Source of the DNA: Candidatus Helarchaeota archaeon
GTDB lineage: Archaea; Asgardarchaeota; Lokiarchaeia; Helarchaeales; RDOG01
Reading direction: 5' to 3'
DNA length: 64,000 nt
Assembly: GCA_019058315.1 (NCBI GenBank)
Contig: JAHPZH010000001.1
Location: 1,297,432 to 1,361,431 of the forward strand
In this document: positions 3,345 to 57,623 of the stretch, in pieces
Numbering within the stretch: the stretch's first letter is position 1
Layout: every line of letters starts with the position of its first letter
Translations under genes and position numbers: made by a program
Notes under the pieces: generated by a model
The model's database searches: none
Seen by the model: the letters and a program-made list of their open reading frames with translations, nothing else
Told to the model about the DNA's origin: nothing

Positions 3345-6300
3345 TTGATGACACATCCAAATAAAAAAGAAATTTTAGAGCAAATTAATGATTTATTTCT
3401 TCAAACAGAAAATGAAATATTGAAATATAATTGGATCGGGGCAATAGAACTTTTAAAAAAAGTCGAAAAGATTATTTTAAATGAAAAATTAAGCGTAAAA
3501 GAAATTGAGTGTGAATTATATTATAAATTGGGGGAATTATACCAAGTAAATGCAAATTTCGAAAAAAAAGAAGATGATGTCTTAAAAAATTTTCAATTAT
3601 CTATTCTAAATTTTCAAAAAGCATACGATATATATGAAAAATTAGAAAATGAAGAAAAAATTAATGAACTTTCAGGTTCTATTAATTTCATAACATATTT
3701 ATTGGGATCTAATGAAGGAAACGAAGAATCTCTATTAAAAAATGCGAAGGACTATTTCAACAGAGCAAAACAAATTAATTTAAAAAAAAGTAATTTTCCT
3801 GATTTCTTAAAAATGGCTTTATTAGAAAGTAGGGCATTAAATTTGCTCCTTGGAGAAAAAATTATACGTATTGATGAAAAAACAGATTCCATAGCATTAG
3901 CTTCAGAATATGAAAATTTAATGGCAGATATTTGGGAAAAAATTAAAAAAGGGCAAAATTTTCCCGAAATTTGTCACTATCATTTTTTTACAAGCACTAT
4001 GGAGTTCTGTCAATGGGCATTATCTTATTTACCTGCTGAAAATTCAATAAATAAGCAACATATTATGAACAATTATGATAGAATAAAAGAATTTATAGAT
4101 ATCTTTGAAAAAAAATCAAATGCACCCAGTTTATTTGTAGCTTATACATTCATCGCCTGGTTTAATACGATTCTTGCTTCTTATTTTGTAGATAGTCAAT
4201 TTGAGCAAAAAAAACATTTAAAAATTGCAGAAAAATGGCTTAAAAAAGCAGACCAGCTATTAACTAAAAATAATACTAATAAAGCTTTGGTTTTATTTTA
4301 TTATACCCGCTTCGCCGTTTCTATACTACTAATTTCTCTAGGTTTTTTTGCAAAAGATTTTAAACATGTTATGGGAGATTTAGACGAATGTACTAATTTA
4401 TTATACGTTTATTTTCCTAGAATATTACTTGCCCATTCGGTATTTTATGCAGCATCAACATTTGCAGTTGGTGCTTTAAGTCTTTCAATTCCGGATGTTA
4501 ATACACGCATCAATCTTGCTAATATTGCTTTGGATTTACTTGAATCTGCAATTCCGAAGATTTCAATCATAACAAATCCAGATTATAAAATATATGATTT
4601 ATTTAGAAAGGGTGTCTTATGTGTAATCAATGCGTTATTAGGAGATTTAATTAAAGATAGAAAAGAAAGCTCTACTCATTTACAAATAGCATTAAATCTT
4701 TTCAATGAAATATCGAAATTTAGCAATCCAAAAATAGAAAACACATTTCTTCATTTTAATTATTTATTTGGTGTAGCTAGAACGGGAATTATATTTGCCA
4801 AAATTTCAGCAAATGAATCCGAAAAGGTTAGTTATTACTTAAAGGCAATAGATTTACTTTTAAAGAGCAAAAAGATATCAATTTCACTGTTCAGCATTGA
4901 AAATCTATTTTTAATAGGCGATCTTTATTATGAAGTAGGAGAACTAACAAATGATGATAAGATATTTAAAAATTCTTACTCATCGTATATAGAAGCAATA
5001 GAATATTGTAAAGATAAGGGTTATTCCAATTTGGTAGGTTCAGGTTATGTAAAACTTGCACAAATCGAGGATAGACTTGGAAATTATCTTTCAGCAGCAG
5101 AGAATTATAAAAAAGCAATTAATTCATTTAATAAAGCAATTTTTACCCTTACTTATTCTAGGGCGAGTAAAAAAATTGAGAAATTAAAAAATTATATAGA
5201 AGCTTGGGAACTTATAGAATCCGCAAAATCGTTTCATTTACAAGAGGATCATAACAAAGCACAGCTTAACTATGAACATGCAAGTCAAATATTAAAAGAT
5301 ATTCGTGAATATAATTTCGAGTCTCCTTTTTATTCCGCATGGGCACTTTTGGAAAAAGCAGAGTCATTAAGTAAAATAAATAAGCATCAGGAAGCTGCTG
5401 CAACTTATATTGTGAGTAAAGGAAATTTTGAAGATGCAGTTGAAACTTTTAATTCATACATAAGTAAAAGAAAATCTTCTAAAGAGACTGAGAGAATTTC
5501 AAAATTAATTCAAGTAGCAAAAATTAGAATAACTTATTGTTCAGCACGTTATCATATTGAAACTGCAAGAGTTGAAAGTAAGAATGGAAACCATTTAATC
5601 GCTTCTGAACTTTATAATAAAGCTGGTACTCTTTTTTATAAGATATGCCAATCATTTAGATTAAAAAGAGAAAAAGATGAATTAACTGCTATATATTACT
5701 TATGTAAAGCTTGGGAAAATATGGAACGGGCGGATCAAGATACAACACTTTATGCAATTGCTTCAGGATTATTTGAAAAAGCTAGCAACATTTTTCCAGA
5801 AAGTAGAATGAAAAAATTGTCCACTGGAAATTCTCTATATTGCTCAGCCTTACATTATGGTGCTTTATTTGATGAATCCACTGAATTAGAAAAGAAGATT
5901 AATTATTATAAAAGAATAAAAATGAATTTAAGGGAAGCAGCAAAAAATTATAAAGTAGGTGGCTTCGATCAAGATGCACAATGGGCCTTAGGAACGTCAA
6001 CATTCTTTGATGGTATCTGGCATTTAATACAAGCAGATAATGAGATAGATTTTACTAAAAAGAACCAATATTTAAATATCGCGACAAATTATATGAATAA
6101 TTCATTAACTATCTTTAAAGAAGCGGAATATGAGCAAAAGCAGGAGGAAATAAGGAATTATCTCGAAATGATTAGTGATGAGAAATCCATATTAACCTCC
6201 GCTTTGAATGTGATTGAAAAGCCAGAAATTTCTGCGAGTAGCATCGGTATATCAGCTCCTGCTAGTCCTGCTGAGATAAGCTCTTCAGTGAATATCGAGG

Positions 6301-6758
6301 AGATGCAAGAAACTGACCTAAAAACGGAGTCTGAATTAAATTGGAGAAAAAGAATACATTATTTATGTATATTTTTAAAAAATGGGATCTCTATTTATGA
6401 TTATACTTTTAAGTCAAAAAGTGAAATCCCACGACAATTAATTGCAAAGGAAGATCTTGAACCGCATCTAGTTGCTGGGGGGCTGTCAGGCATTTCTGCA
6501 TTAATTAAAGAATTGACACACAGTAATACTAAGATAAAGATAGTCGAACAAGAAGAAATGACCATCCTTCTCGAAGATGGAAAATATTTAACAGCTGCTT
6601 TAATAACAGAAGAAAACCTTATAACTTTGAGAAATAAGTTAATGCAATTAATTCTAGATGTGGAAGATTTCTTTCAAGAAGAATTAGAAGATTTTACTGG
6701 TGATTTAGATACTTTTAAGAAAATAGGTAAATTTGTTCAAAAAATATTTGAAATATGA
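3345..6758 (+). CDS. TPR/SNAP-like solenoid + C-terminal longin-like domain protein (paralogue 2)
   Basis: TPR-type helices (LAQIEDRLGNYLSAAENYKKA); C-terminal ~130 aa with longin pattern (IHYLCIFLKNGISIY...LVAGGLSGISALIKEL...GD..F). Confidence 0.85.
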   Translation: MMTHPNKKEILEQINDLFLQTENEILKYNWIGAIELLKKVEKIILNEKLSVKEIECELYYKLGELYQVNANFEKKEDDVLKNFQLSILNFQKAYDIYEKLENEEKINELSGSINFITYLLGSNEGNEESLLKNAKDYFNRAKQINLKKSNFPDFLKMALLESRALNLLLGEKIIRIDEKTDSIALASEYENLMADIWEKIKKGQNFPEICHYHFFTSTMEFCQWALSYLPAENSINKQHIMNNYDRIKEFIDIFEKKSNAPSLFVAYTFIAWFNTILASYFVDSQFEQKKHLKIAEKWLKKADQLLTKNNTNKALVLFYYTRFAVSILLISLGFFAKDFKHVMGDLDECTNLLYVYFPRILLAHSVFYAASTFAVGALSLSIPDVNTRINLANIALDLLESAIPKISIITNPDYKIYDLFRKGVLCVINALLGDLIKDRKESSTHLQIALNLFNEISKFSNPKIENTFLHFNYLFGVARTGIIFAKISANESEKVSYYLKAIDLLLKSKKISISLFSIENLFLIGDLYYEVGELTNDDKIFKNSYSSYIEAIEYCKDKGYSNLVGSGYVKLAQIEDRLGNYLSAAENYKKAINSFNKAIFTLTYSRASKKIEKLKNYIEAWELIESAKSFHLQEDHNKAQLNYEHASQILKDIREYNFESPFYSAWALLEKAESLSKINKHQEAAATYIVSKGNFEDAVETFNSYISKRKSSKETERISKLIQVAKIRITYCSARYHIETARVESKNGNHLIASELYNKAGTLFYKICQSFRLKREKDELTAIYYLCKAWENMERADQDTTLYAIASGLFEKASNIFPESRMKKLSTGNSLYCSALHYGALFDESTELEKKINYYKRIKMNLREAAKNYKVGGFDQDAQWALGTSTFFDGIWHLIQADNEIDFTKKNQYLNIATNYMNNSLTIFKEAEYEQKQEEIRNYLEMISDEKSILTSALNVIEKPEISASSIGISAPASPAEISSSVNIEEMQETDLKTESELNWRKRIHYLCIFLKNGISIYDYTFKSKSEIPRQLIAKEDLEPHLVAGGLSGISALIKELTHSNTKIKIVEQEEMTILLEDGKYLTAALITEENLITLRNKLMQLILDVEDFFQEELEDFTGDLDTFKKIGKFVQKIFEI

Positions 6759-6978
6759 TTATTTTGTAAAATCTCATTTACTTTTAGATTTTTTAATTAA
6801 AATTTATATCCACCTATTAATTAACATTTTAAAACTTCGAAAAATCGATTTATTTCCAATAAGATTAAAAGATTGTTTTTAGTTTACCTAAATTCCCTTT
6901 TTTTTAAGCCATTTGAACTATTTAAACGTGACCATTTATTTATATTATACCAAAATCAAATAAAACTAAGATAAATAA

Positions 6979-9900
6979 GTGGGATATTCATATATGTCTG
7001 ATTTATCACATAAAGATACTCTTAATCAAATTAATGAATTAATTTATGAAGCTGAAGAGGAAGAACGTAAATATAATTGGATAAAAGTTATAGATTTATT
7101 AAAGAAAGTAAGAAGAATAAGTTCGGAAAATAATATAAAAGAATTTGAGGGAGAGGCTTATTTCCGGCTAGGGGAAGTGTATCAGATTGCTGCAGACTTT
7201 GAAAAAGAAGAAATCGAGGTCTCCAATAAATTTCAACTTGCAATAACAAATTTTCAAAAAGCATTTTATATTTTCCACGATTTACAGAACGAAGAGAAGG
7301 AAAGTGCATCAATAGCCTTTCTTAATTATTTAAAATATGTATCTGAAACTGAAAAAGTAGAGGGATCAATTTTATTAGAATCAGCAAGACTTAACTTCAT
7401 TAAATCGAAAATTTTGTTTCAAATTAAGGGCAAATTAAAAGATTCACTGAAAATGGCTATTTTTGAAAGTAGGGCTTTAAATTTACTGATAGGGGAAAAA
7501 CTTGTTCGCCTTGAAAAAACTATAAATTTAGATGAAATGGTTTTAGAACATGAAAATTTAATTATGAACATATCAGAGGAAATAAAGAAACTCCCAGTTT
7601 TTTCTGAAATTTACCTCTTTCATCTTTTTGTTGGAATGACGGATTTTGCCATTTGGTCTTCAATTTTTTTACCAATTGATAATCTACGAAAAACTCAATA
7701 TGTTAAAAGTAATCTTAACATAGTTAAAGAATTAAGTAAGATTTTCGAAAAATCTGGGGGAACATTATCAACTTTTATGGTCTATGGTTTGTGTTCGTTA
7801 TTTAATTTAATTATTTCAGCATTTATTGTTGAAGATAGGTTTGAACAAAAACGACACTTGAAATTATCCGAAAGATGGCTTAAGAAAGCTGAGAAATTAC
7901 TACCAATAATAAGAGCTGGTGGGGGATCAAATTATTCATTAGAATTTTTCTTCTTCATGCGATTCACTAATGCAATATTTCTAATATATCTTGGTTTTTT
8001 TTCAAGGAGTTTTAAACTTGCGATAGCTGATCTAACTCTTATGTTTCATTTAATGTCCTCATTCTTTCCTAGAATAACAAATGCTACTGTAGCTTTTTAT
8101 ACACTTATCGTCTTTTTGCTTGGTGCACTTGTTAGAGCTATTCCTGCTGCTCAAAGGATTGATTTTAGTAAAAAGGCATTAGACTTTATTGATTTAATGA
8201 CAATTTATATTCCACTGATTAATAATCCGAGTTATAAGACTTTCTCTGTATTTAAAAATTTTCAAACATGCATAGCTAACGCTTTATTGGGAGATTTAAT
8301 TCAAGATAGAAAGGAAAGCAAAAAATATTTAGAAACAGCTACAAAAACATTTGATAATCTTTCAAACTTAAAAATTGAACAAGATAATTTTTTCAACCGC
8401 TATTTTTTAATTTTTATGGCAAATTCGGCAAATTTAATAGCTGAAAATATGGAAGAAAAATCAGAAAAAATCAAGTACTATGATCTAGCAATTACATATT
8501 TCTCAAAGAGTGTTAAATTTGGAGGTACATTTTTAGACATCGAAAACATGTTTAGCCTTGGGACTATTCAATATAAATTAGCTAGATTAATGAATGACGA
8601 CGAAATCTTTAAAAAATCCTACGAATCATATAAAAATGCAATTGAATATTGCTCAGGAAAGGGTTATTATAATCTAGTAGGATCAGGGTTTGTAAAGCTT
8701 GCTCAAATTGAAGATAGATTGGGTAACTATCTTTCAGCTGCTGAAAATTATAAGAAAGCATTAGAATCATTTGATAGGGCTCTTATAACCTTCACTTATC
8801 TTAAATTAGGTAAAAAAATTGAAAAGTTAAAGAATTATATGAATGCATGGCAATTGATAGAAATTGCTAAATCTCATCATATAAAAGAAGATCACACAAA
8901 TGCTCAATTAAATTACGAACAAGCCAGTCATATTTTGAGTGGGATTAAGGAATACAATTTTGAAGCTTCATTCTATTCGGCTTGGGCACTTTTAGAAAAA
9001 GCTGAGTTTTTAAGCAAGCACAATAAACATCAAGAAGCTGCGGCAACCTATTTAGTCTCTAAAACTAAGTTCGACGATGCGATCGAGGCTTTAAATTTGA
9101 AATTATCTAAAAAAATAGGTATAAGAATCAAAGAGAGAGTCTCAAAATTAATTCAAGTCGCAGAAGTTCGAGAAACCTATTGTTCTGCACGATATCAAAT
9201 AGAAACTGCGAGAATTGAATCTAAGAAAGGAAATCATATACTTGCTGCTGAGTTATATAACAAAGCTAGTACTTTATTTGAAAAATTATGTCAGACCTAT
9301 AGAATTAGAAGGGAAAAGGATGAATTAGAAGCAATATTTTACTTGTGCAAAGCATGGGAGAGTATGGAGCGGGCTAGTATACAACAGGATCCATCTTTAT
9401 TCACTATTGCTTCAGACTTATTTAAACAAGCAAGCCATATCTTTCCTGATAGTAGATTAAAAAAATTATCAATAGGTAATTCACTTTATTGTACTGCATT
9501 AGAATGCTCAGCCAAATTTGACAAAACACCTGAAATAACCGAAAAAATTAGTCATTATAAAAAGATCAAAATGGTTCTTCGAGAATCATCAAAAAATTAT
9601 AAATTAGGAGGTTTCGAACAAGACGCTAAGTGGGCATTAGCTACCTCGACGTTTTTTGATGCTATTTGGCATTTAATGAAATCGGATAATGAAATCGACT
9701 TTTCAAAAAAAAGAGAATATTTGAGCATAGCATCGAATTATCTTAATGAAGCTTTAAATATTTTGAAAGATACTGAATATGAACAAAAAAAGGAAGATAT
9801 TTTAAATCATTTAAAAATGATTAAGGATGAAAAAACGATTCTAACTTCAGCGTTAAATGTTATTGAAAAGCCCGAAATTTCAGAAAGTAGTATTGGAATT

Positions 9901-10383
9901 TCGGCTCCAGCTTGTCCTATTGAGATTAGCTCTTCAGTCAGTATAGGAGAAATGCAGCAATCCGATTTAAAATCAGAGTCAGAAATGAATTGGCATAAAA
10001 AAATTCATCATATTTACATGTTTTTGCCGAAAGGAATTTGTATATATGACCAATCGTTTATGCCTACTGAACAAGAAGAATTTGAACCCCAATTGGTCGC
10101 AGGAGGATTAACAGGCATCTCGGGATTAATTCAAGAGTTAACCCAAAGTAAAACTAAGGTTAAAATAGTTGAACAAGAAGAAATGACTCTACTTCTCGAA
10201 CACGGTAAATATATGACAACTGCTTTGGTTGCAGAAGAGAATCTAATTATATTACGAAATAAATTAATTCAGTTAGTTGAGGATGTAGAGGATTTATTTC
10301 AAGAAGAATTTGAGTCGTTTTATGGAAATTTAAACGTTTTTTCAAAGGTTGGTAAATTAGTTAACAAAATATTTAAGAAATAA
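6979..10383 (+). CDS. TPR/SNAP-like solenoid + C-terminal longin-like domain protein (paralogue 3); likely start ATG 6994
   Basis: Collinear with paralogue 2 over its full length. Confidence 0.85.
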   Translation: MGYSYMSDLSHKDTLNQINELIYEAEEEERKYNWIKVIDLLKKVRRISSENNIKEFEGEAYFRLGEVYQIAADFEKEEIEVSNKFQLAITNFQKAFYIFHDLQNEEKESASIAFLNYLKYVSETEKVEGSILLESARLNFIKSKILFQIKGKLKDSLKMAIFESRALNLLIGEKLVRLEKTINLDEMVLEHENLIMNISEEIKKLPVFSEIYLFHLFVGMTDFAIWSSIFLPIDNLRKTQYVKSNLNIVKELSKIFEKSGGTLSTFMVYGLCSLFNLIISAFIVEDRFEQKRHLKLSERWLKKAEKLLPIIRAGGGSNYSLEFFFFMRFTNAIFLIYLGFFSRSFKLAIADLTLMFHLMSSFFPRITNATVAFYTLIVFLLGALVRAIPAAQRIDFSKKALDFIDLMTIYIPLINNPSYKTFSVFKNFQTCIANALLGDLIQDRKESKKYLETATKTFDNLSNLKIEQDNFFNRYFLIFMANSANLIAENMEEKSEKIKYYDLAITYFSKSVKFGGTFLDIENMFSLGTIQYKLARLMNDDEIFKKSYESYKNAIEYCSGKGYYNLVGSGFVKLAQIEDRLGNYLSAAENYKKALESFDRALITFTYLKLGKKIEKLKNYMNAWQLIEIAKSHHIKEDHTNAQLNYEQASHILSGIKEYNFEASFYSAWALLEKAEFLSKHNKHQEAAATYLVSKTKFDDAIEALNLKLSKKIGIRIKERVSKLIQVAEVRETYCSARYQIETARIESKKGNHILAAELYNKASTLFEKLCQTYRIRREKDELEAIFYLCKAWESMERASIQQDPSLFTIASDLFKQASHIFPDSRLKKLSIGNSLYCTALECSAKFDKTPEITEKISHYKKIKMVLRESSKNYKLGGFEQDAKWALATSTFFDAIWHLMKSDNEIDFSKKREYLSIASNYLNEALNILKDTEYEQKKEDILNHLKMIKDEKTILTSALNVIEKPEISESSIGISAPACPIEISSSVSIGEMQQSDLKSESEMNWHKKIHHIYMFLPKGICIYDQSFMPTEQEEFEPQLVAGGLTGISGLIQELTQSKTKVKIVEQEEMTLLLEHGKYMTTALVAEENLIILRNKLIQLVEDVEDLFQEEFESFYGNLNVFSKVGKLVNKIFKK

Positions 10384-10458: not shown

Positions 10459-13233
10459 TTGGAAGAGAATGAGTCACATATTGGAGATATAAAGCCTATC
10501 TTTTTAAAATGTGAGTATTTAATCAATCCATTAGGTATAGATATTGTTGATCCGCGTTTGAGTTGGGTATTAGAATCCGATAAACGTAATAAGAAACAAA
10601 CCGCATATCATATTTTAGTGGCGAGTAATGAGGAAATTCTAAATGAAGACAGGGGAGACTTGTGGGATAGCGGTAAAGTAATAACTGATGAATCTACCCA
10701 TATAATTTATCAGGGGAAAGAACTAAAATCACAAATATTTTGTTATTGGAAAGTTCGTGTTTGGGATGGTAATGATAAACCTTCTGATTGGAGCAAGAAT
10801 GCTAAATGGAGTATGGGTTTATTAAAGGATGATGATTGGAAAGCTAAATGGATAGGAACTTCGTCTAAAAGTATATTTTGGATTAATAAAGTCTTACCAA
10901 AAAAAGATAATCCTTGTCCATTATTACGTAAATCATTTCAATTCGCGAATAAAGCTAAACGTGCCATTGTTTATGTTACTGCTTTGGGTGAGTATGAATT
11001 ATATCTTAATGGAAAACGTGTTAGTGATCATATTTTAGCTCCAGAATGGACAGATTATGATAAAAGAGTACAATATCAAACTTATGACGTTACCGATCTG
11101 CTTGTTGAGGGAGAGAATGTAATTGGAGCTATATTAGCAGATGGATGGTATATTGGAAACCTAGGACCAGGTATGCCACCATACCTCCATCATTTTTACG
11201 GAGAAAACAGACGCTTATTATTACAAATGGAAATAGAGCAATTTGATGGAACTATAAAAGAAATTGTTAGTGATTCAGATTGGAAAATTCTTGAAGATGG
11301 ACCTATTGAAGTAGCAGATCATTTCACAGGGGAGACTTATAACGTTCAAAAAGAAATCGTAAATTGGGATAAATCCGGCTTTGATGATTCAGAGTGGTCC
11401 CATGTAACTATTGATTCTACAATAGATAATAAAATTGTTGCACAGATGAATGAGCCAATTCGAATTGTAAAAGAAATTAAACCTATTGAGGTTACAGAAC
11501 CAAATCCTGGAGAATTTGTTTTTAATTTAGGTCAAAATATTGCTGGTTGGTGTAGAATCTCGCTTGACAAATCCATATGTGACGCTAATGCTATAATAAC
11601 GCTACGTCATGGGGAAATGCTTAATCCAGATGGAACTCTTTATACAAAAAATTTAAGAAATGCAAAGGCGACTGATACATACATACTTAAAGGGATAGAA
11701 AAACGAGAGTATCAACCTCATTTTACTTATCATGGCTTTCAATATGTTGAAGTGAAAGGGTTAAAACCAGGTATTAAGCCAAATCTCGATATGATAACTG
11801 GTTGTGTAGTTGCATCAGATGCACGATTAGTAGGTGGATTTGAAAGTTCTGATCCCACGGTAAATAAGCTCTGGAACAATATATTATGGACACAACGAGA
11901 TAATATGATAAGTGTGCCTACTGATTGTCACCAACGTAATGAGCGAATGGGTTGGATGGGTGATGCACTAGTTTTTTGTCAAATGTCGATTTTTAATATG
12001 GATATGGCTGCCTTTTACACAAAATGGATTCAAGATATAAGAGATGCCCAATCCGATGAGGGAAGATATACAGATATGTCTCCTACTCCTTATAGAATAA
12101 AAGGCCTTTTTAAACTGGTTTTTCTAGGTGCTCCAGCGTGGGCTGATTGTGGTATTCATCTCCCATGGGACGTATATTTGAATTATGGTGATAAAAGATT
12201 AATTGAACAACATTTCGATTCAGCAAAAAAATATATCGATTATGTACATTCTAAAAATCAAAATTTAATTTGGATAAGGAGAAGAGGAAATAATTACGGG
12301 GATTGGCTTAATGGTAATGAAATCAAATCAGAAGATTATCCAAAAAAAGGTGGAGAAGTTCCCAAAGAAGTTCTTTCAACAGCCTTTTTCGCTCACTCTA
12401 CAGAAATCCTTTCTAAGATGGCTGAAATAATTGGTTTAAAAGATAAATTTGAATATTATGACAATTTAGCAAGACAAATAAGAGAAAAATTCACTGAACG
12501 GTTTGTTAAAAATGATGGTAAAATCAAAGGTGATACACAAGCTGGTTATGCTATTGCTCTACACTTCAATTTATTACCCGAAGAATTACGCCCTAAAGCT
12601 GTTAAACACATGTTAAATGCAATAGAAAGATATGATGGACGTATTTCGACAGGATTCCTTTGCACATTACCTATGATGTTAGAATTAACTCGTTGGGGCC
12701 ATAATGATACCGCATATCAATTACTCTTGAGTCGAAAATTCCCATCTTGGTTTTATATGATTGATCAAGGGGCAACTACCATGTGGGAAAGGTGGGACGG
12801 ATATGTAAAGGGAAGAGGCTTTCAAAATAAATCAATGAATTCTTTTTGTCATTATGCATTTGGTTCTGTAGGTGAATGGATTATTAAAGTTATTCTAGGT
12901 ATTGATTTGGACGAAAATCAGCCCGGATATAAACATATAATTGTTAGACCAAGACCTAATGGGGCTATAACATGGGCAAAAGGATACTATGATTCAATTC
13001 GAGGTAAAATAGACGTTGATTGGAGTCTTCAAGGGAAAAAATTTAATCTCGAAATAAAAATTCCCCCAAATACTACCGCAACAGTTTATTTACCTGCAAG
13101 TAATTTAGAAAATATTACAGAAAATGATAAATCAATTCATGAATCTGATGATATAGAATTAAAAAAGTATGAAGCTAATTTGGCTATTTTAAAAATTAAT
13201 TCTGGTAAATACTCTTTTATATCTTCCATGTAA
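10459..13233 (+). CDS. Alpha-L-rhamnosidase, glycoside hydrolase family 78
   Basis: CEYLINPLGID, LGQNIAGW, FTYHGFQYVE, VPTDCHQRNERMGWMGD, GATTMWERWD and SFCHYAFG motifs; no signal peptide. Confidence 0.95.
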   Translation: MEENESHIGDIKPIFLKCEYLINPLGIDIVDPRLSWVLESDKRNKKQTAYHILVASNEEILNEDRGDLWDSGKVITDESTHIIYQGKELKSQIFCYWKVRVWDGNDKPSDWSKNAKWSMGLLKDDDWKAKWIGTSSKSIFWINKVLPKKDNPCPLLRKSFQFANKAKRAIVYVTALGEYELYLNGKRVSDHILAPEWTDYDKRVQYQTYDVTDLLVEGENVIGAILADGWYIGNLGPGMPPYLHHFYGENRRLLLQMEIEQFDGTIKEIVSDSDWKILEDGPIEVADHFTGETYNVQKEIVNWDKSGFDDSEWSHVTIDSTIDNKIVAQMNEPIRIVKEIKPIEVTEPNPGEFVFNLGQNIAGWCRISLDKSICDANAIITLRHGEMLNPDGTLYTKNLRNAKATDTYILKGIEKREYQPHFTYHGFQYVEVKGLKPGIKPNLDMITGCVVASDARLVGGFESSDPTVNKLWNNILWTQRDNMISVPTDCHQRNERMGWMGDALVFCQMSIFNMDMAAFYTKWIQDIRDAQSDEGRYTDMSPTPYRIKGLFKLVFLGAPAWADCGIHLPWDVYLNYGDKRLIEQHFDSAKKYIDYVHSKNQNLIWIRRRGNNYGDWLNGNEIKSEDYPKKGGEVPKEVLSTAFFAHSTEILSKMAEIIGLKDKFEYYDNLARQIREKFTERFVKNDGKIKGDTQAGYAIALHFNLLPEELRPKAVKHMLNAIERYDGRISTGFLCTLPMMLELTRWGHNDTAYQLLLSRKFPSWFYMIDQGATTMWERWDGYVKGRGFQNKSMNSFCHYAFGSVGEWIIKVILGIDLDENQPGYKHIIVRPRPNGAITWAKGYYDSIRGKIDVDWSLQGKKFNLEIKIPPNTTATVYLPASNLENITENDKSIHESDDIELKKYEANLAILKINSGKYSFISSM

Positions 13234-13246
13234 AAAATATCGTAAT

Positions 13247-14401
13247 GTGGTAGAAGTGAACTCGAAAGACCGTGTTTTAACTACTTTTAATCATGAAGAG
13301 CCAGATCGAGTTCCCATTTTCGAACTTTCAATTGAGAGTCCAGATGTTGCGAATGGTTATGGAATAGATAGGATGTCTTCAATTTATAGCTTAGATGTAG
13401 AAAATGCGATCACACTATACCAAAGAATTGGATTAGATCTTTCCATAGTTCCTGTTTGTGGCTTCCCTATTGGAAAAGGGACGGGTTTTGGAAAGAAAAA
13501 GCCAGGTTTAAAAACCCCACGCTCAACAAATATGGTAGAGGAGTTTGGTAGAGTGATAACATACTCTATTAAAGATCTACCGACTTATGTAGGTGGTTGG
13601 TTTGATTCAGAAACTGGCGATTTAGATGAAATAATAGAAAAATATGAAAAATTTTCCCCACTAGACCCAAACGCAAAGTTAAGGTATATCCCTTTTGAAA
13701 GAGCAGTAAAAACTGCAGGAACATCAGAAACAAAAAGCCCATACATTATACCTATGATGCAAGGTTTTTTTGAGAATTCATGGCAGCCTTTTGGGTTTGA
13801 AAATTATACCCGATTATTATTTGAGCGTTCCGATTTTGTTGAAACAGTTTTGAACAATATTGATATTTTTTTAACAGAATTAATAGAAAATCTTGCTGAC
13901 CGTTATTCAATTGAACTAATATGTTACGGAGATGATCTAGGTTATAAAACGGGACCTTTAATAAATCCTAGAAATTTTCAAAAACTTATTTATCCTAAAA
14001 TGAAAAAGTTTGTAGAGTTTTGTCATAAAAAAAATATGAAAGTACTTTATCATTCTTGTGGAAATTTAAATAAAATATTAGATAAAGTGATAGAAACAGG
14101 AATTGATGGATTACATCCTCTTGAACCTAGTGCGGCGATGGATATATTCGCAACACATCGGAGTTATGGTGATAGATTAACATTGATAGGAAATGTTGAT
14201 ACAATTGATTTGTTAGCAAAGGGAACAACCGCACAAGTTAGTGAATACGTGAAAAAAGAAATTAAATATATCGCCCCTAATGGAGGATTAATCATTTCAT
14301 CATCACATTCAATTAATCCACAAATTTCATTTGAAAATTATAATGCTATGATAGAAACAACTAAAAAATATGGTAAGTATCCAATTTCGATAAATGATTA
14401 A
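13247..14401 (+). CDS. Uroporphyrinogen decarboxylase / MtaA-fold corrinoid methyltransferase
   Basis: NSKDRV...HEEPDRVP, GDDLG, HSCG, LIGNVD and GG.IISSSHSI motifs. Confidence 0.88.
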   Translation: MVEVNSKDRVLTTFNHEEPDRVPIFELSIESPDVANGYGIDRMSSIYSLDVENAITLYQRIGLDLSIVPVCGFPIGKGTGFGKKKPGLKTPRSTNMVEEFGRVITYSIKDLPTYVGGWFDSETGDLDEIIEKYEKFSPLDPNAKLRYIPFERAVKTAGTSETKSPYIIPMMQGFFENSWQPFGFENYTRLLFERSDFVETVLNNIDIFLTELIENLADRYSIELICYGDDLGYKTGPLINPRNFQKLIYPKMKKFVEFCHKKNMKVLYHSCGNLNKILDKVIETGIDGLHPLEPSAAMDIFATHRSYGDRLTLIGNVDTIDLLAKGTTAQVSEYVKKEIKYIAPNGGLIISSSHSINPQISFENYNAMIETTKKYGKYPISIND

Positions 14402-15062
14402 TATTGGTGATTTAATGGAAGATTTAAAAAAATTAGAAGATTCAATTACAAATTTAGATAAAAAAGGAGCAGTAGATACAACAAATAAAATTATTTCTGA
14501 AAAAAAAGTTACTGTAAAACAGGGGATAGATGCGGTAACTAAGGCATTACAAAATATCGGTGAACTTTATGAAAAGGAGGAATATTATCTTGCAGAACTC
14601 GTTTATGCTGGTGACATATCGAAGACTATTTTAGGTCTTTTAGAACCGCATTTACCAAAAACTGCTGATAAAGATTTTGCCAAAAGGATTGTCATAGGGA
14701 CTGTAAAAGGAGACATGCATGATTTAGGAAAGAATATTGTGCAAGCATTTGGACGCGGAGCAGGTTATGAAATAATTGATTTAGGAAATGATGTTTCAGT
14801 TGAAGCTTTTATAAAAGAACTTATGGAAAATAATATCAAAATTCTAGGTATATCATGCCTTTTAACTGCCTGTGATTCCGAGTTACCAAAAATCCTAACT
14901 GCTTTAAAAGATAAAGGGTTAATTGACGTAAAAGTTGTTATTGGTGGAGCTGCAATGACCGAAAAATTAGCGGCAGACTTAGAAAATAAATTCAATATAA
15001 CCGTTAAATTTGCTCCTGATGCAATTAATGGAATTAAAATTTTTAACGAGTTGATAGATTAA
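14394..15062 (+). CDS. Cobalamin-binding corrinoid protein (MtaC/MtbC-like); likely start ATG 14415
   Basis: Cap domain plus GTVKGDMHDLGK (DxHxxG), GISCLL and VIGGA. Confidence 0.92.
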   Translation: MINIGDLMEDLKKLEDSITNLDKKGAVDTTNKIISEKKVTVKQGIDAVTKALQNIGELYEKEEYYLAELVYAGDISKTILGLLEPHLPKTADKDFAKRIVIGTVKGDMHDLGKNIVQAFGRGAGYEIIDLGNDVSVEAFIKELMENNIKILGISCLLTACDSELPKILTALKDKGLIDVKVVIGGAAMTEKLAADLENKFNITVKFAPDAINGIKIFNELID

Positions 15063-15083
15063 AATACACAAAAGAGGATATTC

Positions 15084-16262
15084 ATGAACTCGAAAGAAAG
15101 AATATTAGCAACAATTAATCATGAAGAACCGGACAGAGTTCCAATTTTCCTTTCGGGAATAGATAGTCGAGATGTGTATGAAGGTTATTTGAAATCTAAA
15201 GGAAAAAAACCAGATAAGAGCGGAAAAATTAGAATAAGGAGTATTCTACCTGGGGGTCGGGGTTGGCTTAAATTTATGGTTGATCTCGGCATTGATTTAC
15301 AGCATGCGCCCGTATGTCTTCTACCTATAGGCAAGGGCACCGGTTTTGGCGTGAAAAAACCAGGACTAAAAACTCCGCCAGAATCTACTTGGGCAGATGA
15401 ATATGGACGTATTTTTCATAGTTATAAGGCGGAGGATTCAGATTTACGTCTATGGAATTACGTAGGCGGTATCTTTGATTCTGAGACTGGTGATTTGGAA
15501 GAGATCATGAACAGATATGAAAAATGGGATCCGTTAAATGCAGATATTAAATGGAGATATTTTATTTATGAGGAGGCCCTTAAAACGGTAAAAAATGAAG
15601 GGCCTTTTGTAGTCCCGGGCATAGGTGGTTTCTTTGAGGTAACTTGGGAATCGTTCGGTTTCGAAAATTATACGAAACTCTTATTTGAACATCCTGACTT
15701 TATTGAGCAGGTCACAAAAAATAATGAAGAATTTTCTCGGCGATTAACTGAGATTTTGATAGAGAAATACAATATTGAGATGTTATGGGTCTGGGATGAT
15801 TTGGGATATAAAACAGGAACATTCTTGAATCCAAGACAATACATGAAATTAATATATCCACGGATGAAAAATCTCGTCGCATATTGTCATAAAAATGGTG
15901 TAAAGGTAGCATTACACTCTTGTGGTAATCTAAATAAAATACTAGATAAAGTGATTGATACTGGAATTGATGCTTTAAATCCAATTGAACCTTCAGCTCA
16001 TATGGACATTTTTCAACTAAAAAAAGATTATGGAAATAAATTGACATTAATAGGAAATGTAGATACTACTGATTTATTAGCAAGAGGAACTCCGGAACAA
16101 GTTGAAACCCACGTAAAGAAATTAATCAAATTCTGTGCACCTGGTGGAGGTTATATAGTGTCATCTGGGCACTCAATCAATCCTAGTATAACCTATGAAA
16201 ATTATAATTCCATGATTCAAACGACATTGAAATATGGAAAATATCCTATTGAACTACAATGA
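15084..16262 (+). CDS. URO-D/MtaA-fold corrinoid methyltransferase
   Basis: HEEPDRVP, WDDLG, HSCG, LIGNVD and SSGHSI; paralogue of 13247. Confidence 0.88.
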   Translation: MNSKERILATINHEEPDRVPIFLSGIDSRDVYEGYLKSKGKKPDKSGKIRIRSILPGGRGWLKFMVDLGIDLQHAPVCLLPIGKGTGFGVKKPGLKTPPESTWADEYGRIFHSYKAEDSDLRLWNYVGGIFDSETGDLEEIMNRYEKWDPLNADIKWRYFIYEEALKTVKNEGPFVVPGIGGFFEVTWESFGFENYTKLLFEHPDFIEQVTKNNEEFSRRLTEILIEKYNIEMLWVWDDLGYKTGTFLNPRQYMKLIYPRMKNLVAYCHKNGVKVALHSCGNLNKILDKVIDTGIDALNPIEPSAHMDIFQLKKDYGNKLTLIGNVDTTDLLARGTPEQVETHVKKLIKFCAPGGGYIVSSGHSINPSITYENYNSMIQTTLKYGKYPIELQ

Positions 16263-17473
16263 ATGAATTTCAATTATTAATCAAGCCAAGTTCTTATGAT
16301 TGTAATTTAAACTGTGAATATTGTTTTTATAAAAGAGTAGAAAAGCTCTATCCTGAAATTAAACACCCCAGAATGAGTGATAAGACATTAGAAGTCTTAA
16401 TAAAGAAATATCTTGGACTTAGGTTACAAAATTCTGTTTTTTGCTGGCAGGGGGGAGAACCCACTTTAATGGGTTTAGATTTTTATAAAAAGGTAGTACA
16501 ATTTCAGCAGAAATATGGCATAGGAGGACAACTCGTTGGTAATGTCCTTCAGACAAATGGGATATTAATTGACGAAGATTGGGCAAAATTTTTACATGAT
16601 TATAAAGTTTTTGTGGGTTTAAGCCTTGATGGTCCTGAGAATATACACGATCATTACAGAAGGACAATCAATGGGAAGGGAACATGGAAAAAAGTAATGA
16701 AGTGTGTGAAAATCTTACAAGATAATAAAGTAGAATTTAATATATTATGCGTACTGTCTAAAGCAAATGTTAACCATGTGAAAGAGCTTTATCAATTTTT
16801 TAGTGAAAATGATCTTAATTATTTACAATTTATCCCAGCGCTTGAATGTACAAATAATAAAATGGCACCATATTCTCCAACAGCAGAAGAATATGGGAAA
16901 TTTTTATGTGAAATTTTCGATTTATGGAAAAAGAACGGGGTTGAAAATGTTCATTTTCGAACGTTTGAAGATATTTTTTCATTATATCTAGGACTTTCCA
17001 CAAATTCTTGTCCATTTGGTAAAAATTGTTCTGATTATTTGGTAATAGAATGGAATGGTGATGTTTTTCCTTGTGACTTCTTTGTGAAATCAGACCTAAA
17101 ATTAGGAAATATCATAAATGATGATTTTTCGAATATTTTAAAAAATAGACCTGCAATTTTTAGTAATCGTAAAAAGAAACTCGGAAATGAATGTTTGAAT
17201 TGTCATTGGAAAAACATATGTCATGGTGGATGTTTAAAGGATAGGGATTTTTGCGAGAATACCGATAACAATAGAAGTTACTATTGTAAGGTATATAAGT
17301 TATTTTTTACATACTCTTATGAATGGTTTCTTCAAGCACAAACAAAATTTCAACAAGATAGGGGTATTACTTTAATTCCACAAATTAATAAAATAAACCG
17401 AAATGATTACTGTCCATGTGGATCTGGATTGAAATATAAAAAATGTCACGGAAAAAAACAAATTAGAGATTAG
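16259..17473 (+). CDS. Anaerobic sulfatase maturase (radical SAM/SPASM) with C-terminal SEC-C motif
   Basis: IKP..YDCNLNCEYCFY, WQGGEPTL, QTNG, SLDG, SPASM cysteines, RNDYCPCGSGLKYKKCHG. Confidence 0.92.
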   Translation: MNEFQLLIKPSSYDCNLNCEYCFYKRVEKLYPEIKHPRMSDKTLEVLIKKYLGLRLQNSVFCWQGGEPTLMGLDFYKKVVQFQQKYGIGGQLVGNVLQTNGILIDEDWAKFLHDYKVFVGLSLDGPENIHDHYRRTINGKGTWKKVMKCVKILQDNKVEFNILCVLSKANVNHVKELYQFFSENDLNYLQFIPALECTNNKMAPYSPTAEEYGKFLCEIFDLWKKNGVENVHFRTFEDIFSLYLGLSTNSCPFGKNCSDYLVIEWNGDVFPCDFFVKSDLKLGNIINDDFSNILKNRPAIFSNRKKKLGNECLNCHWKNICHGGCLKDRDFCENTDNNRSYYCKVYKLFFTYSYEWFLQAQTKFQQDRGITLIPQINKINRNDYCPCGSGLKYKKCHGKKQIRD

Positions 17474-17620: not shown

Positions 17621-19231
17621 ATGAAAAATAAGAAGTTATTTCTATTTTTTATTATGAATTTTATCTTAATTTCAACAATAATTATCAATAATTATTCTGC
17701 TACTTCAAATTCGTTGATATCTTGGACGAAAAACCATGAAATATGGATATCTATAAAAGAATCTTTTAAAAAATGGAATGATAATGGCATTGCGATTTGT
17801 ACATATAGTGAAGATCAAGATTATCCCCAAATTTGTAGCGATGGTGATGGCGGTGCAATTATTGTGTGGGAAGATTCTAGGAGCGGCGGTCCTAGTTATA
17901 TTTATGCACAGAATATAAATTCTGTTGGAGTCGTAGAATGGGCTTTAAATGGTACTAGAATATGTACAAATGACAGTAACCAAGATTATCCACAAATTTG
18001 TAGTGATGGTAATGGAGGTGCAATTATTACTTGGAGAGATGATAGAGTCCCAGGAAATGATATTTATGCACAGAGAATAAATTCTAGTGGAGAACTAGAA
18101 TGGAACACGAACGGTGTAGTAATTTGCAATGACTCTTCCAATCAAGATTATCCTAAGATTTGTAGTGATTTAGTTGGAGGTGCAATCATTACATGGATGG
18201 ATTATAGAAGTGGAACAAGCTATGATATCTATGCACAAAGAATAAATTCTGACGGAATCGTTCAGTGGACACCAAACGGCGAGGAGGTCTGCACAGCAAA
18301 TCGTACTCAACAACAACTTCAAATTTGTAGTGACAATGCCAGCGGAGCGATTATTACTTGGGAAGATACTAGAAATTGGCCAACTAATCGTGATATTTAC
18401 GCCCAAAGAATAAATAATAGCGGAGGGATTGAATGGCAAAACAACGGCACTGTGGTTAGTTCTCTAATCAGAAACCGATCTAATCCTCAAATTTGTAGCA
18501 GCGGTGAAGGAGGTGCGATTATCACGTGGGAAGAAACAATTACCGTGACAGAAATTGATATTTATGCACAAAAATTAAATTCTAGTGGAGATCTCGAATG
18601 GGGATTTGGTGCACACGGAGTTTGTGGAGCACCTTATCAGCAATATAATCCTCAACCTTGTAGTGACGGTGCTGGTGGCGTAATCATCACATGGAGAGAT
18701 TATAGAAATGGAACTCATTATGATATCTATGCACAAAGAATAAAATCAGGTGGAGGCTGTCAATGGACGACGAATGGCGTACCAATATGTACAGAGAGTT
18801 ATGATCAAATTTATCCTCAGATTTGTAGTGATGGTGTTGGTGGTGCAATAATCACGTGGGAAGATATTAGAAATTTTCCTGGACCTGCAGATATCTATGC
18901 ACAAATAATAAATTCAAACGGAATTTTGAAATTGACGACGAATGGTATGACAATATGTATAGAGAGTAATCAACAAGGCATTCCACAAATATGTAGTGAT
19001 AATGCTGGTGGTGCGTTCATAACTTGGGTTGATTTTAGAGGCGGGAGTAATTTTGACATATATGCACAGAGACTTATGAAATCTACTGCAATTAACTTAT
19101 TAGATTCGATCATACTCTTGTTAGCGAACCAAACAACGCCCATTAATTCGTTATTATTACCACTGATAATAGGGATAGCCGCAGTAATAGTGATTATAAT
19201 AATATTGATAATAATGAAAAAAAGAAAATAA
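17621..19231 (+). CDS. Secreted, C-terminally anchored 8-repeat beta-propeller-like surface protein
   Basis: N-terminal signal peptide; 8 x ~55-aa repeats (PQICSDGxGGAIITW...DIYAQRI); C-terminal TM + KKRK. Confidence 0.82.
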   Translation: MKNKKLFLFFIMNFILISTIIINNYSATSNSLISWTKNHEIWISIKESFKKWNDNGIAICTYSEDQDYPQICSDGDGGAIIVWEDSRSGGPSYIYAQNINSVGVVEWALNGTRICTNDSNQDYPQICSDGNGGAIITWRDDRVPGNDIYAQRINSSGELEWNTNGVVICNDSSNQDYPKICSDLVGGAIITWMDYRSGTSYDIYAQRINSDGIVQWTPNGEEVCTANRTQQQLQICSDNASGAIITWEDTRNWPTNRDIYAQRINNSGGIEWQNNGTVVSSLIRNRSNPQICSSGEGGAIITWEETITVTEIDIYAQKLNSSGDLEWGFGAHGVCGAPYQQYNPQPCSDGAGGVIITWRDYRNGTHYDIYAQRIKSGGGCQWTTNGVPICTESYDQIYPQICSDGVGGAIITWEDIRNFPGPADIYAQIINSNGILKLTTNGMTICIESNQQGIPQICSDNAGGAFITWVDFRGGSNFDIYAQRLMKSTAINLLDSIILLLANQTTPINSLLLPLIIGIAAVIVIIIILIIMKKRK

Positions 19232-21758: not shown

Positions 21759-22952
21759 TTAATGTTTTAGATTTAATGGAGGTAAGGGTGGTACTTTATC
21801 ATTCCAGTTCTCTGAAACTGGATAATCCCACCATTCGGGAGGAATTTTTGAATAATCACCATATTTTTTTAGACCTCTTACAAAAGCCCTAATATTTTTT
21901 GATGGTACTTTGATATGCTCCGGCTGGGCATAAAAATAGGCACCAAATCCACCCTTTTTCGTACCAAGGTTTCTCATCATATGCCACACTTCACGTTCAC
22001 ATTCTTCTGGAGTCCCTTGGGTATATATTGATTGGATATTTACACATCCCCAGAACATAATCTTTCCACGAAACGGTTTCAAATCAGTATAACCACTCAT
22101 ACGAGGACTATCAAATTCTAATGCATCTAGCTTCCAATCAATAAAGTGTGGAACTAACTGATCGATTTTTCCACAAGAGTGTAAGTGAAATTCACAACCT
22201 AGATCATGTGCAGCTTCAAATAATGGACGGTAAAGAGGTTCATAGAACTCTTTAAACATTTTTAAGCTCATAAATGGACTATTTTGAGTTCCAAGGTCGT
22301 CAGCTATTATAAAACCATGGGGTTTTCCTCCAAGTTTTACCCACATTTTCATATTTTTTATGAACCAATCTTTTAGATAGTTAAGAAGGTATTTCACTTT
22401 ATCTGGATTAAGAATATGATCGGCCATGAAATTTTCAAATCCTCTAATATAGGTTGCAACTGAAAATGGTGCATGGGGGCCTAATAAGACCATTCGATAT
22501 TTATTTTTTCCAAATTCTTTAGTCATATTTATGAATAAGGAATATCGACTTTTATCTTCAGGATCGGGTGTATAACGTTCTAAATATTCATCCAATTTAT
22601 CCCAATTAGGAAGAGATGGTCTAGCAGGGTGTCCAATAGTTTGCATAGTTCCTTGTTGCCAAATACACCCCCATTCATCTATCTCTTCGTGTGGTAGTTT
22701 CCACCACTCTTTATATTTTGGATCCTTAGCCCATTCTGGAGGATTTTCTTGCCATTTTTTTGTTAATACTGAATAAGAAAAAGAATATGGAAACAATCCT
22801 TTTTCATCTTCGGCAAAACCCGGTCTCCAATTCTTTGATGGCATGGTCACTAGAGGCCATACATCGCTATTAGATTTTCCATAATTCATTATAGGAACTT
22901 TATCTGGACCTGAAAAATTTATAGCGGCTTTAACTCTTTCTAATGAATTCAT
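21759..22952 (-). CDS. URO-D/MtaA-fold methyltransferase family protein
   Basis: MNSLERV..GPDKVP, DEWGC.W, ADDLGTQ, HSCG and FWGCVNIQ. Confidence 0.85.
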   Translation of the reverse strand: MNSLERVKAAINFSGPDKVPIMNYGKSNSDVWPLVTMPSKNWRPGFAEDEKGLFPYSFSYSVLTKKWQENPPEWAKDPKYKEWWKLPHEEIDEWGCIWQQGTMQTIGHPARPSLPNWDKLDEYLERYTPDPEDKSRYSLFINMTKEFGKNKYRMVLLGPHAPFSVATYIRGFENFMADHILNPDKVKYLLNYLKDWFIKNMKMWVKLGGKPHGFIIADDLGTQNSPFMSLKMFKEFYEPLYRPLFEAAHDLGCEFHLHSCGKIDQLVPHFIDWKLDALEFDSPRMSGYTDLKPFRGKIMFWGCVNIQSIYTQGTPEECEREVWHMMRNLGTKKGGFGAYFYAQPEHIKVPSKNIRAFVRGLKKYGDYSKIPPEWWDYPVSENWNDKVPPLPPLNLKH

Positions 22953-22985: not shown

Positions 22986-24182
22986 CTATTCATTTTTTGG
23001 GATTAGAGGAAGTGGTGGGACAATATTATCTTTCCACACTTCAATTGTTGGTTGAACCCACCATTGAGGGGGTATTTTTGAATAATCCCCATATTTTTTA
23101 AGACCTTTTGTAAATGCTCTTACGTTTGCTGGAGGAACGCCAAGTTGTTCTGGCTCTGGATAAATATAGGCACCAAATCCGCCATCCTTGGTTCCAAGAT
23201 TTCGCATCATATGCCAGACTTCTCTTTCACAATCTTCAGGTGTCCCTTTGGGATATATTGTTTGGATATTAATACAACCCCAAAACATAATTTTTCCTCG
23301 GTATGGTTTTAAATCGGTATATCCGCTCATACGTGGGCTATCAAATTCAAAAGCATCTAGCTTCCAGTCTATAAAGTAAGGAAGTAGTTTATCTATTTTA
23401 CCACAGGTATGTTGGTGAAATTCACATCCAAGATCATGAGCAGTTTCATATAAAGTGTGGAATAATGGTTTATACAATTTTTCAAACATTTTTGGTTTAA
23501 TAAATGGACCTTGTTGGGTTCCTAAATCTTCAAATATCAAGAATCCATGGGGTTCACCACCGTATTTAACCCAACATTTCATGTTTTTAACAAACCAATC
23601 CTTAAGATAATTAAAGAGATATTCAAGCTTCTCGGGATGAATTGCATGATCAATCATAAAATTTTCAAAACCTCGCATATTAGACGCGATCCATTGTGGG
23701 GCTAAGGGTCCTAAAAGTGCCATTCTATATTGATTTTTACCAAATTGTTTACTTAATTTTAGAAAAAAAGAATATCGGCTCTTATCCTCGGGATCGGGAG
23801 TATAGCGATCTAAATATTCTTCAAGTTTAGACCAATCAGGTAGTGAAGGTCTTCCAGGGTGCCCCATGGTTTTTATAGTTCCATGTTCCCAAATGCATCC
23901 CCATTCATCTATTTCTTGGTGTGGTTTTTTCCACCAATTTTCATATTTCGGATCTTTTGCCCATTCTGGCATATTTTCATTCCATTTTTTTAAAAATTCA
24001 GGGAATGCATAATTATATGGAAAAAGGCCTTCTTCATCCTTTGCATAACCCGGTTTCCAATCTTCAGAAGGCATAGTAATGAGGGGAAACACATCACTAT
24101 TTGGCATTCCAAAATTCATTATTGGCACTTTATCGGGTCCTTCAAATTTCAATGCAGCTTTTACCCTTTCTATTGAATTCAT
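22986..24182 (-). CDS. URO-D/MtaA-fold methyltransferase family protein (tandem duplicate of 21759)
   Basis: Same motifs (HTCG); long identical stretches with 21759. Confidence 0.85.
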   Translation of the reverse strand: MNSIERVKAALKFEGPDKVPIMNFGMPNSDVFPLITMPSEDWKPGYAKDEEGLFPYNYAFPEFLKKWNENMPEWAKDPKYENWWKKPHQEIDEWGCIWEHGTIKTMGHPGRPSLPDWSKLEEYLDRYTPDPEDKSRYSFFLKLSKQFGKNQYRMALLGPLAPQWIASNMRGFENFMIDHAIHPEKLEYLFNYLKDWFVKNMKCWVKYGGEPHGFLIFEDLGTQQGPFIKPKMFEKLYKPLFHTLYETAHDLGCEFHQHTCGKIDKLLPYFIDWKLDAFEFDSPRMSGYTDLKPYRGKIMFWGCINIQTIYPKGTPEDCEREVWHMMRNLGTKDGGFGAYIYPEPEQLGVPPANVRAFTKGLKKYGDYSKIPPQWWVQPTIEVWKDNIVPPLPLIPKNE

Positions 24183-57619: not shown

Positions 57620-57623
57620 TTAT

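Follow-up and report, generated by a model that had tools for sequence, protein, structure and literature searches.

In this study, we asked what an alpha-L-rhamnosidase of family GH78 is doing in an archaeal operon whose other genes encode two URO-D-fold proteins, a corrinoid (B12) carrier protein and a sulfatase maturase (anSME). The operon lies in a stretch of 64,000 nucleotides from Candidatus Helarchaeota archaeon (assembly GCA_019058315.1, contig JAHPZH010000001.1, positions 1,297,432 to 1,361,431 of the forward strand), which was analysed as a whole and is called the window here; the host genome, a 5.79-Mb assembly, is coded G000, with contigs C3, C5, C11 and so on. Our answer, to which we assign a probability of about 0.5, is that the locus encodes a cytoplasmic module that trims methyl-ether and sulfate decorations from imported rhamnose-containing oligosaccharides or glycosides. 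Domains were assigned from Pfam and NCBIfam profile scores relative to their cut-offs. The listing of open reading frames (ORFs) gave five genes in the following 5' to 3' order:

10459-13233, + strand: GH78 alpha-L-rhamnosidase, 924 aa, cytoplasmic (without a signal peptide)
13247-14401, + strand: UROD1, URO-D-fold methyltransferase, candidate substrate-side methyltransferase (MT-I), 384 aa, PF01208 at E = 2e-29
14394-15062, + strand: corrinoid (B12) carrier protein, 222 aa, start overlapping the end of UROD1 by 8 nt
15084-16262, + strand: UROD2, URO-D-fold methyltransferase, candidate MT-I, 392 aa, PF01208 at E = 1e-30
16259-17473, + strand: anSME, a radical SAM/SPASM protein with a C-terminal SEC-C zinc motif, start overlapping UROD2 by 4 nt

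The two remaining junctions are gaps of 13 nt (GH78 to UROD1) and 21 nt (corrinoid protein to UROD2). The coordinates and domains agree exactly with the original prediction, which had described five co-oriented genes with overlaps or gaps of at most 21 nt. It had also remarked on the lack of an MtaB- or MttB-type gene, and none was found among the window ORFs scanned. The operon contains no gene for an activator, a transporter or the methyltransferase that would unload the methylated carrier (MT-II). Rfam and tRNA scans of the window, whose GC content is about 30%, were empty.

GH78 was found in 55 of 400 Asgard genomes, and 21 of its neighbourhoods were examined. The five genes of the operon make up a closely spaced and conserved unit. 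In the nearest relative, L140 (91% identity), the order is GH78, URO-D, corrinoid protein, URO-D, a 49-aa ORF and anSME with its SEC-C tail, and the translationally coupled junctions are preserved. In L001 (77-88% identity), GH78 is followed by a giant TPR protein, URO-D, corrinoid protein and URO-D, and the place of anSME is taken by a protein of 161 aa and a URO-D of the short, canonical kind. The same five-gene order in L140 and the shared GH78/URO-D/corrinoid protein/URO-D core in L001 indicate that the arrangement goes beyond chance. A further locus, L058, encodes a URO-D, a corrinoid protein and three more URO-Ds.

The linkage of GH78 to URO-D, whose conservation the original prediction had named as a check, is not confined to this genome: at least four genera have it, with URO-Ds that are polyphyletic. 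In G151, G171, G173 and G280, the GH78 orthologue (49-64% identity) is flanked by a URO-D gene (on both sides in G280), which adds three further genera of the same class. From the URO-D copy numbers (7-40 per genome), a URO-D neighbour would be expected by chance in about 1.5-4% of cases per genome. The URO-Ds next to GH78 orthologues fall in at least four distant clades, indicating that the pairing is not merely inherited synteny. In G151, the genes for a URO-D, a GH29 fucosidase, GH78 and a carboxylesterase form an operon (L037) with gaps of no more than 36 nt, and in G171 a divergent GH78/URO-D pair (L038) stands isolated among CoA-metabolism genes. Given this independent recurrence, UROD1, the corrinoid protein and UROD2 are likely to be functionally coupled to GH78.

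The GH78 gene starts with TTG; a GGTG ribosome-binding site precedes this codon, and the gene follows an AT-rich spacer of 75 nt. All five Pfam domains of the family were detected (E from 1e-111 to 3e-24, the best value being that of the 6-hairpin domain), giving the architecture N-terminal Ig, Bac_rhamnosid_N, concanavalin-like, (alpha/alpha)6 catalytic and C-terminal domain. The closest solved relative is SaRha78A (3w5m, 755 bits), and the gene is the only GH78 in the genome.

UROD1 and UROD2 are paralogues with 55-56% identity. The motifs of UROD1 that are conserved in its clade are HEEPDRVP, DDLGYKTGP, HSCGN, LEP and S-H-S-I-N-P (SSHSINP in UROD1 itself). An AlphaFold2 model of UROD1 (pLDDT 92.4) showed the barrel of the URO-D fold, to which the N-terminal half adds a beta subdomain of about 45 residues. 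Foldseek matched the model best to MtaA, the methylcobamide:coenzyme M methyltransferase of M. mazei (4ay7, TM-score 0.70), with UroD next; CdmB, the chloromethane:corrinoid methyltransferase of Acetobacterium dehalogenans (9rui), was not among the PDB matches listed for this model. In the alignment to MtaA, the His-x-Cys was matched, the later MtaA Cys corresponded to His354, and LEP stood opposite VEE. In the published 4ay7 structure, the zinc ligands of MtaA are His-x-Cys, Glu and the third Cys; on that basis, the aligned residues of the UROD1 clade likely form a His/Cys/Glu/His zinc site, and this predicted site could polarise an ether oxygen.

UROD1 and UROD2 share with MtaA the fold, the His-x-Cys and Glu ligands and a corrinoid protein partner, but they differ from it in sequence (17% identity), in the third ligand and in the additional beta subdomain, and no methanogenesis context was seen in the window. 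Orthology to MtaA or MtbA was rejected, with scores of 71-77 bits against NCBIfam cut-offs of 235-600 (235-400 for the MtaA models) and His354 in place of the third Cys, and so was orthology to HemE (19 and 30 bits against a TIGR01464 cut-off of 303). By sequence, the closest solved relative of UROD2 is the MT-I CdmB (E = 1e-9, 41 bits), over the C-terminal third (about 140 residues) only, whereas UROD1 gave no match to CdmB at E <= 0.01. CdmB is a UroD-superfamily MT-I, as is proposed for UROD2, and has insertions in its N-terminal half, but it lacks the His-x-Cys site of the URO-Ds described here, binds no zinc and has a hydrophobic cavity for haloalkanes (PMC13222342). Homologues of CdmB have been reported in Asgard archaea (PMC13222342).

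The corrinoid protein has the B12-binding_2 helical cap and the Rossmann B12-binding domain in Pfam, and its His-on motif is DMHDLG (DxHxxG). It scored 108.6 bits against TIGR02370, under the subfamily cut-off of 215, and belongs with the MtaC/MtbC-type proteins. An adjacent cognate corrinoid protein lies between two URO-D genes in the window and in L140, L001 and L058. We consider it highly probable that UROD1, the corrinoid protein and UROD2 constitute a corrinoid methyltransferase system. Alternatively, the URO-Ds might not demethylate at all: as TIM-barrel enzymes that depend on a metal, they could, for instance, decarboxylate or isomerise the deoxy-sugar once it is released, or they could add methyl groups in biosynthesis. 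This reading would suit the many bacterial relatives that sit in sugar catabolic operons with no corrinoid protein close by, as well as the scores far under the cut-offs of the equivalog models for MtaA and HemE, but is very improbable in view of the carrier with an intact DxHxxG wedged between both URO-Ds with an 8-nt overlap in four genomes, the corrinoid proteins and RACo activases near other family members, and a fold and metal site that match MtaA best.

The genome inventory bears on the same point. It comprises 26 URO-D paralogues, 36 B12-binding matches (about 17 of them small carriers of about 210-230 aa), 16 clear sulfatases, one anSME and one GH78 (both the operon genes), one RamA/RACo (C3:876475), one MtrH homologue (C5:772075), two pterin-binding proteins, four CdhC/ACS matches, two MttB matches and no MtaB genome-wide. 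So many carriers beside almost no MttB or MtaB indicate that URO-D proteins supply most of the substrate-side methyltransferases, and unloading and re-activation of the carriers could fall to a small shared set of enzymes. For UROD1 and UROD2, the best reading is that of corrinoid methyltransferases on the substrate side (MT-I), the role in which the original prediction had cast them and to which this inventory points.

Each of the two MttB matches carries one in-frame stop, TAA in C11:106589-108031 and TGA in C3:325026-326429, respectively, and neither is the pyrrolysine codon TAG; they may be broken genes, cases of recoding or two ORFs.

The sulfate side of the module involves both anSME and a second operon. 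The anSME scored 401.1 bits against the equivalog model TIGR03942 (cut-off 349.45) and has the radical SAM cluster motif CNLNCEYC (CxxxCxxC), with the SPASM auxiliary-cluster cysteines in CLNCHWKNICHGGC. As the sole maturase for 16 sulfatases, it is best seen as a genome-wide maturase co-expressed with the locus rather than as a pathway-specific part. It is retained in the operon of the closest relative only. The C-terminus (window positions 17399-17473) is a SEC-C zinc motif, CPCGSGLKYKKCHGK, which is kept in the L140 orthologue.

The second operon, on the - strand, is convergent to the first and encodes a beta-propeller protein, a sulfatase, UROD4 and UROD3. The features of this part of the window are:

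17621-19231, + strand: surface beta-propeller repeat protein with an N-terminal signal/transmembrane helix, a C-terminal transmembrane anchor and a KKRK tail
21759-22952, - strand: UROD3, 71% identical to UROD4
22986-24182, - strand: UROD4, in one operon with the sulfatase
24207-25667, - strand: S1 sulfatase, Cys-type (C-x-P-S-R), cytoplasmic, 24 nt upstream of UROD4
25767-27278, - strand: second beta-propeller repeat protein, upstream of the sulfatase

The gaps within the sulfatase/UROD4/UROD3 run are 24 and 33 nt. The sulfatase (PF00884, E = 2e-46) has a CGPSR motif that aligns with that of the solved enzyme 6pt4; this motif, together with an alignment that runs from residue 1 to the mature part of the solved enzymes, indicates a Cys-type, cytoplasmic protein. 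Its best solved relatives are carbohydrate sulfatases, namely the exo-2S iota-carrageenan sulfatase 6pt4 and the sulfatase domain of the ulvan GH78/sulfatase P36 (6hr5, 137 bits). It is the nearest client of anSME, 6.7 kb away, and so supplies the matching enzyme for the desulfation that the original prediction had proposed. Three genes separate the two operons, encoding the surface propeller, a 7TM-longin protein and an uncharacterised protein. In L140, a UROD3-like gene lies convergent to anSME and only about 400 nt past it, and we therefore read both convergent operons as one locus. The UROD3/UROD4 clade is also represented in the URO-D/GH29/GH78/esterase operon L037. The surface propeller has about nine 'DIYAQRINS...QICSDG.GGAIITW' blades and is missing from the L140 locus; its membership of the system is uncertain. 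A paralogue of the second propeller, 1119 aa long, stands beside two sulfatases at C5:82528-89372 of the host genome.

Beyond GH78, the neighbourhoods of the wider URO-D family include transport and sugar genes, and the clade of UROD1 and UROD2 itself occurs in two such settings. A Hodarchaeales locus combines three URO-Ds and a corrinoid protein with a GPH-type MFS transporter, GH1, another URO-D, a second MFS transporter and GH94, and a Promethearchaeota locus joins URO-D and corrinoid protein to a sulfatase. A cassette of divergent GH94, corrinoid protein plus URO-D, and MFS transporter occurs in metagenome-assembled genomes of Hel-, Thor-, Hermod- and Promethearchaeota (L065, L073, L076, L077, L087, L089 and L113). 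MFS_1 (11), Pur_DNA_glyco (10) and MFS_2 (8) were among the commonest families in 148 neighbours of Asgard family members, with MFS/MFS_2 the most frequent. The bacterial relatives, from Chloroflexota, Planctomycetota, Clostridia, Aerophobetes and others, neighbour sugar ABC transporters, zinc alcohol dehydrogenase/glucose-dehydrogenase-like enzymes, SDRs, PfkB and FGGY kinases, DHDPS-type aldolases, FAH hydrolases and RACo activases. A corrinoid protein was present at 30 of the 80 wider family loci.

Gene order, domains, motifs, fold, operon conservation, the recurring GH78/URO-D pairing and the gene inventory are observations; which way the methyl group moves, which protein acts as MT-II and what the substrate is are what we infer from them. 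In the mechanism that we propose, GH78 would cleave terminal alpha-L-rhamnose, and UROD1 and UROD2, as zinc-type MT-I enzymes, would transfer an O-methyl group from the substrate to the Co(I) form of the corrinoid protein encoded between them. A short MtaA-like URO-D or the single MtrH homologue, encoded elsewhere, would then take the methyl group off the corrinoid in trans for entry into the Wood-Ljungdahl pathway, and the single RamA would re-reduce the carrier. MT-II is probably supplied in trans, because relatives carry a short MtaA-like URO-D inside the locus and the present genome has, besides MtrH, two sister genes (C5:1257397 and C3:445380), each beside a carrier. The co-transcribed anSME would form the formylglycine of Cys-type sulfatases, first of all the cytoplasmic one in the convergent sulfatase/UROD4/UROD3 operon.

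As the methylated substrate, we tentatively prefer methyl ethers of sugars, for example O-methyl-rhamnose or O-methyl-fucose, to methoxylated aglycones, at slightly less than even odds. This preference follows from the operon that combines fucosidase, rhamnosidase and esterase genes, from the resemblance of the sulfatase to carbohydrate sulfatases and from the sugar catabolism genes around the bacterial relatives. In the glycans of algae, cyanobacteria and plants, no sugars carry O-methyl groups as often as rhamnose and fucose, and 3-O-methyl-rhamnose is a constituent of the sulfated rhamnan calcium spirulan.

The module could instead be an aromatic O-demethylase, in which GH78 (GH1 elsewhere) frees a methoxylated, possibly sulfated phenolic, for instance from a flavonoid rhamnoside, the URO-Ds demethylate its aryl methyl ether in the manner of MtvB, OdmB, VdmB and MtoB, and the sulfatase removes an aryl sulfate. 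GH78 and GH1 enzymes commonly cleave flavonoid glycosides, and a set of cytoplasmic enzymes suits small glycosides. In L004, a close homologue has an arylsulfotransferase in its vicinity, and carboxylesterases with BD-FAE matches stand beside the C5 URO-D cluster. All characterised URO-D-fold O-demethylases take aryl methyl ethers, and CdmB, the nearest solved relative of UROD2, belongs to their clade (PMC13222342). The similarity to CdmB is, however, weak in UROD2 and undetected in UROD1 at the threshold given above, a GH29 fucosidase as in L037 is unusual for phenolic glycosides, the sulfatase and the bacterial neighbours point to carbohydrates (sugar kinases, sugar dehydrogenases and sugar ABC transporters among the latter), and no genes for the breakdown of aromatic rings were noticed in the window. 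On balance, we regard an aromatic substrate as rather unlikely.

Another small methyl donor, such as a methylthiol, a halomethane or a methylated cyclitol (for example pinitol), might also feed the URO-D/corrinoid protein/URO-D set, the proximity of GH78 and anSME then reflecting shared regulation or gene shuffling. The spread of 26 URO-D paralogues over many contexts, close homologues in loci without a glycoside hydrolase (L003 and L004), inositol-monophosphatase and GFO/IDH/MocA neighbours, and the link of Asgard CdmB-like genes to haloalkanes (PMC13222342) are consistent with such a donor. We nevertheless judge it improbable, as URO-D/GH78 adjacency recurs independently in four genera with different URO-D clades, the coupled junctions are retained in L140, and L037 and L038 have the pairing without other context.

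Several observations weigh against glycan trimming by the present module. Both MT-II and a transporter are missing from the operon, and anSME stays in it only in the nearest relative. A URO-D neighbour was absent at 8 of the 14 GH78 orthologue loci examined, including that of G128 from the same family, and at all 7 loci of a GH78 group with 32-36% identity; conversely, GH78 was found at none of the 80 wider URO-D family loci. Many bacterial relatives have no nearby corrinoid protein, suggesting that the family may not be uniformly B12-dependent. The carboxylesterases, whose feruloyl-esterase-type matches are weak, and the arylsulfotransferase neighbour suit aromatics as well. Alkoxides leave less readily than phenolates. 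The characterised URO-D-fold MT-I enzymes all use aryl methyl ethers, halomethanes or methylthiols, not sugars (PMC13222342).

The remaining genes of interest concern other methyltransferase and sulfatase loci. A second island of the host genome (G000:C5:62760-96874) has three tandem type-B carboxylesterases and five URO-Ds with one corrinoid protein, UROD2- and UROD3-like genes alternating; it also encodes a DUF2961/GH172-type protein, the 1119-aa propeller (weak CBM56 match), two sulfatases, a metallo-beta-lactamase, a GFO/IDH/MocA oxidoreductase and a further URO-D. We also considered whether sulfatases and URO-Ds are generally associated in this genome and found no support for it: direct adjacency occurs in the present locus only, the two sulfatases on C5 lying 7-12 kb from URO-Ds. 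In the window, the gene at 52936-54231 (+ strand) encodes a metallo-beta-lactamase plus alkyl-sulfatase dimerisation protein (type III, SdsA1-like), a second kind of sulfate-ester hydrolase that is independent of anSME. At 56990-58766 (- strand), a corrinoid protein (56990-57619) and a URO-D of another clade without His-x-Cys (57624-58766) form a pair, and an SDR lies at 58832-59689. A CCG/Fer4 (HdrD-like) protein of 443 aa is encoded at 28174-29505 (+ strand); one of the same length and domains follows the URO-D/corrinoid protein cluster in L058, and weaker relatives occur near URO-D genes in several further loci. Four paralogous TPR proteins of about 1130 aa are encoded at 3345-10383, 42847-46233 and 48208-51585, and it is one such paralogue that is inserted between GH78 and the first URO-D in L001.

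Among known systems, the corrinoid O-demethylases (MtvABC of Moorella, OdmABCD/Vdm of Acetobacterium, and MtoABCD of Methermicoccus shengliensis and Archaeoglobus fulgidus) likewise place a URO-D-superfamily methyltransferase beside a small MtaC-type carrier, with a RamA-type activator in the genome and the methyl group presumably passing to a pterin and the Wood-Ljungdahl pathway. The present locus differs in that two paralogous MT-I candidates flank the carrier, neither MT-II nor activator is in the operon, GH78 and anSME are joined to it, sequence similarity to the characterised clade is marginal, and a sugar or glycoside, not a free aromatic of the lignin type, is the probable substrate. 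The P36 protein of the Formosa agariphila ulvan polysaccharide utilisation locus also ties a GH78 to a formylglycine sulfatase (S1_25) for sulfated rhamnose, but it is bacterial, secreted, fused and without a methyltransferase, whereas here both enzymes are cytoplasmic and encoded in convergent operons. The P450/ferredoxin sugar O-demethylase of marine Bacteroidetes, which acts on the 6-O-methyl-galactose of porphyran, has the same proposed role in a glycan-degradation locus with sulfatases (PMC6292453, PMC10033563); it is O2-dependent, of unrelated fold and releases formaldehyde, whereas the present system would be anaerobic and conserve the methyl group on B12.

The original prediction knew of no archaeal description of a B12-dependent route that demethylates and desulfates sugars or glycosides; for aromatic substrates, B12-dependent O-demethylation in archaea is already on record, namely for Methermicoccus MtoABCD (PMC8630106), Archaeoglobus (PMC8359953) and Bathyarchaeia (PMC10989822). 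We found no published corrinoid-dependent carbohydrate O-demethylation and no glycoside hydrolase/URO-D operon in the literature, subscription journals not being covered. A preprint on Mlp gene clusters (PMC10418091) was considered as a prior description and set aside, as it mentions no sugars, glycosides or sulfatases. The only described removal of sugar methyl groups that we found is the O2-dependent P450 reaction (PMC6292453). UROD1, UROD2 and their relatives may be the first oxygen-independent carbohydrate O-demethylases, zinc- and B12-dependent and acting on 6-deoxyhexoses (O-methyl-rhamnose, O-methyl-fucose) after their release from methylated, sulfated and acetylated glycans, with the methyl group entering the Wood-Ljungdahl pathway; we advance this only tentatively, as something that falls clearly short of even odds.

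The locus and its relatives name expressible candidates for anaerobic sugar demethylation, namely two URO-Ds with their own carrier and a partner glycosidase, and they link glycan trimming to one-carbon metabolism in Asgard archaea, whose URO-D paralogues are unexplained or assigned to haloalkanes. If the substrate is a methoxylated aglycone, the finding would be a more modest extension of known O-demethylases to archaeal glycoside catabolism. O-Methyl-rhamnose, -fucose and -galactose and 4-O-methyl-glucuronate occur widely, both in marine dissolved organic matter and in the glycans of algae, cyanobacteria and plants, and their methyl groups block ordinary sugar catabolism. If the URO-Ds are sugar O-demethylases, Asgard archaea and the many anaerobic bacteria that have related genes would gain access to these blocked sugars, together with a source of energy or carbon in the methyl groups.

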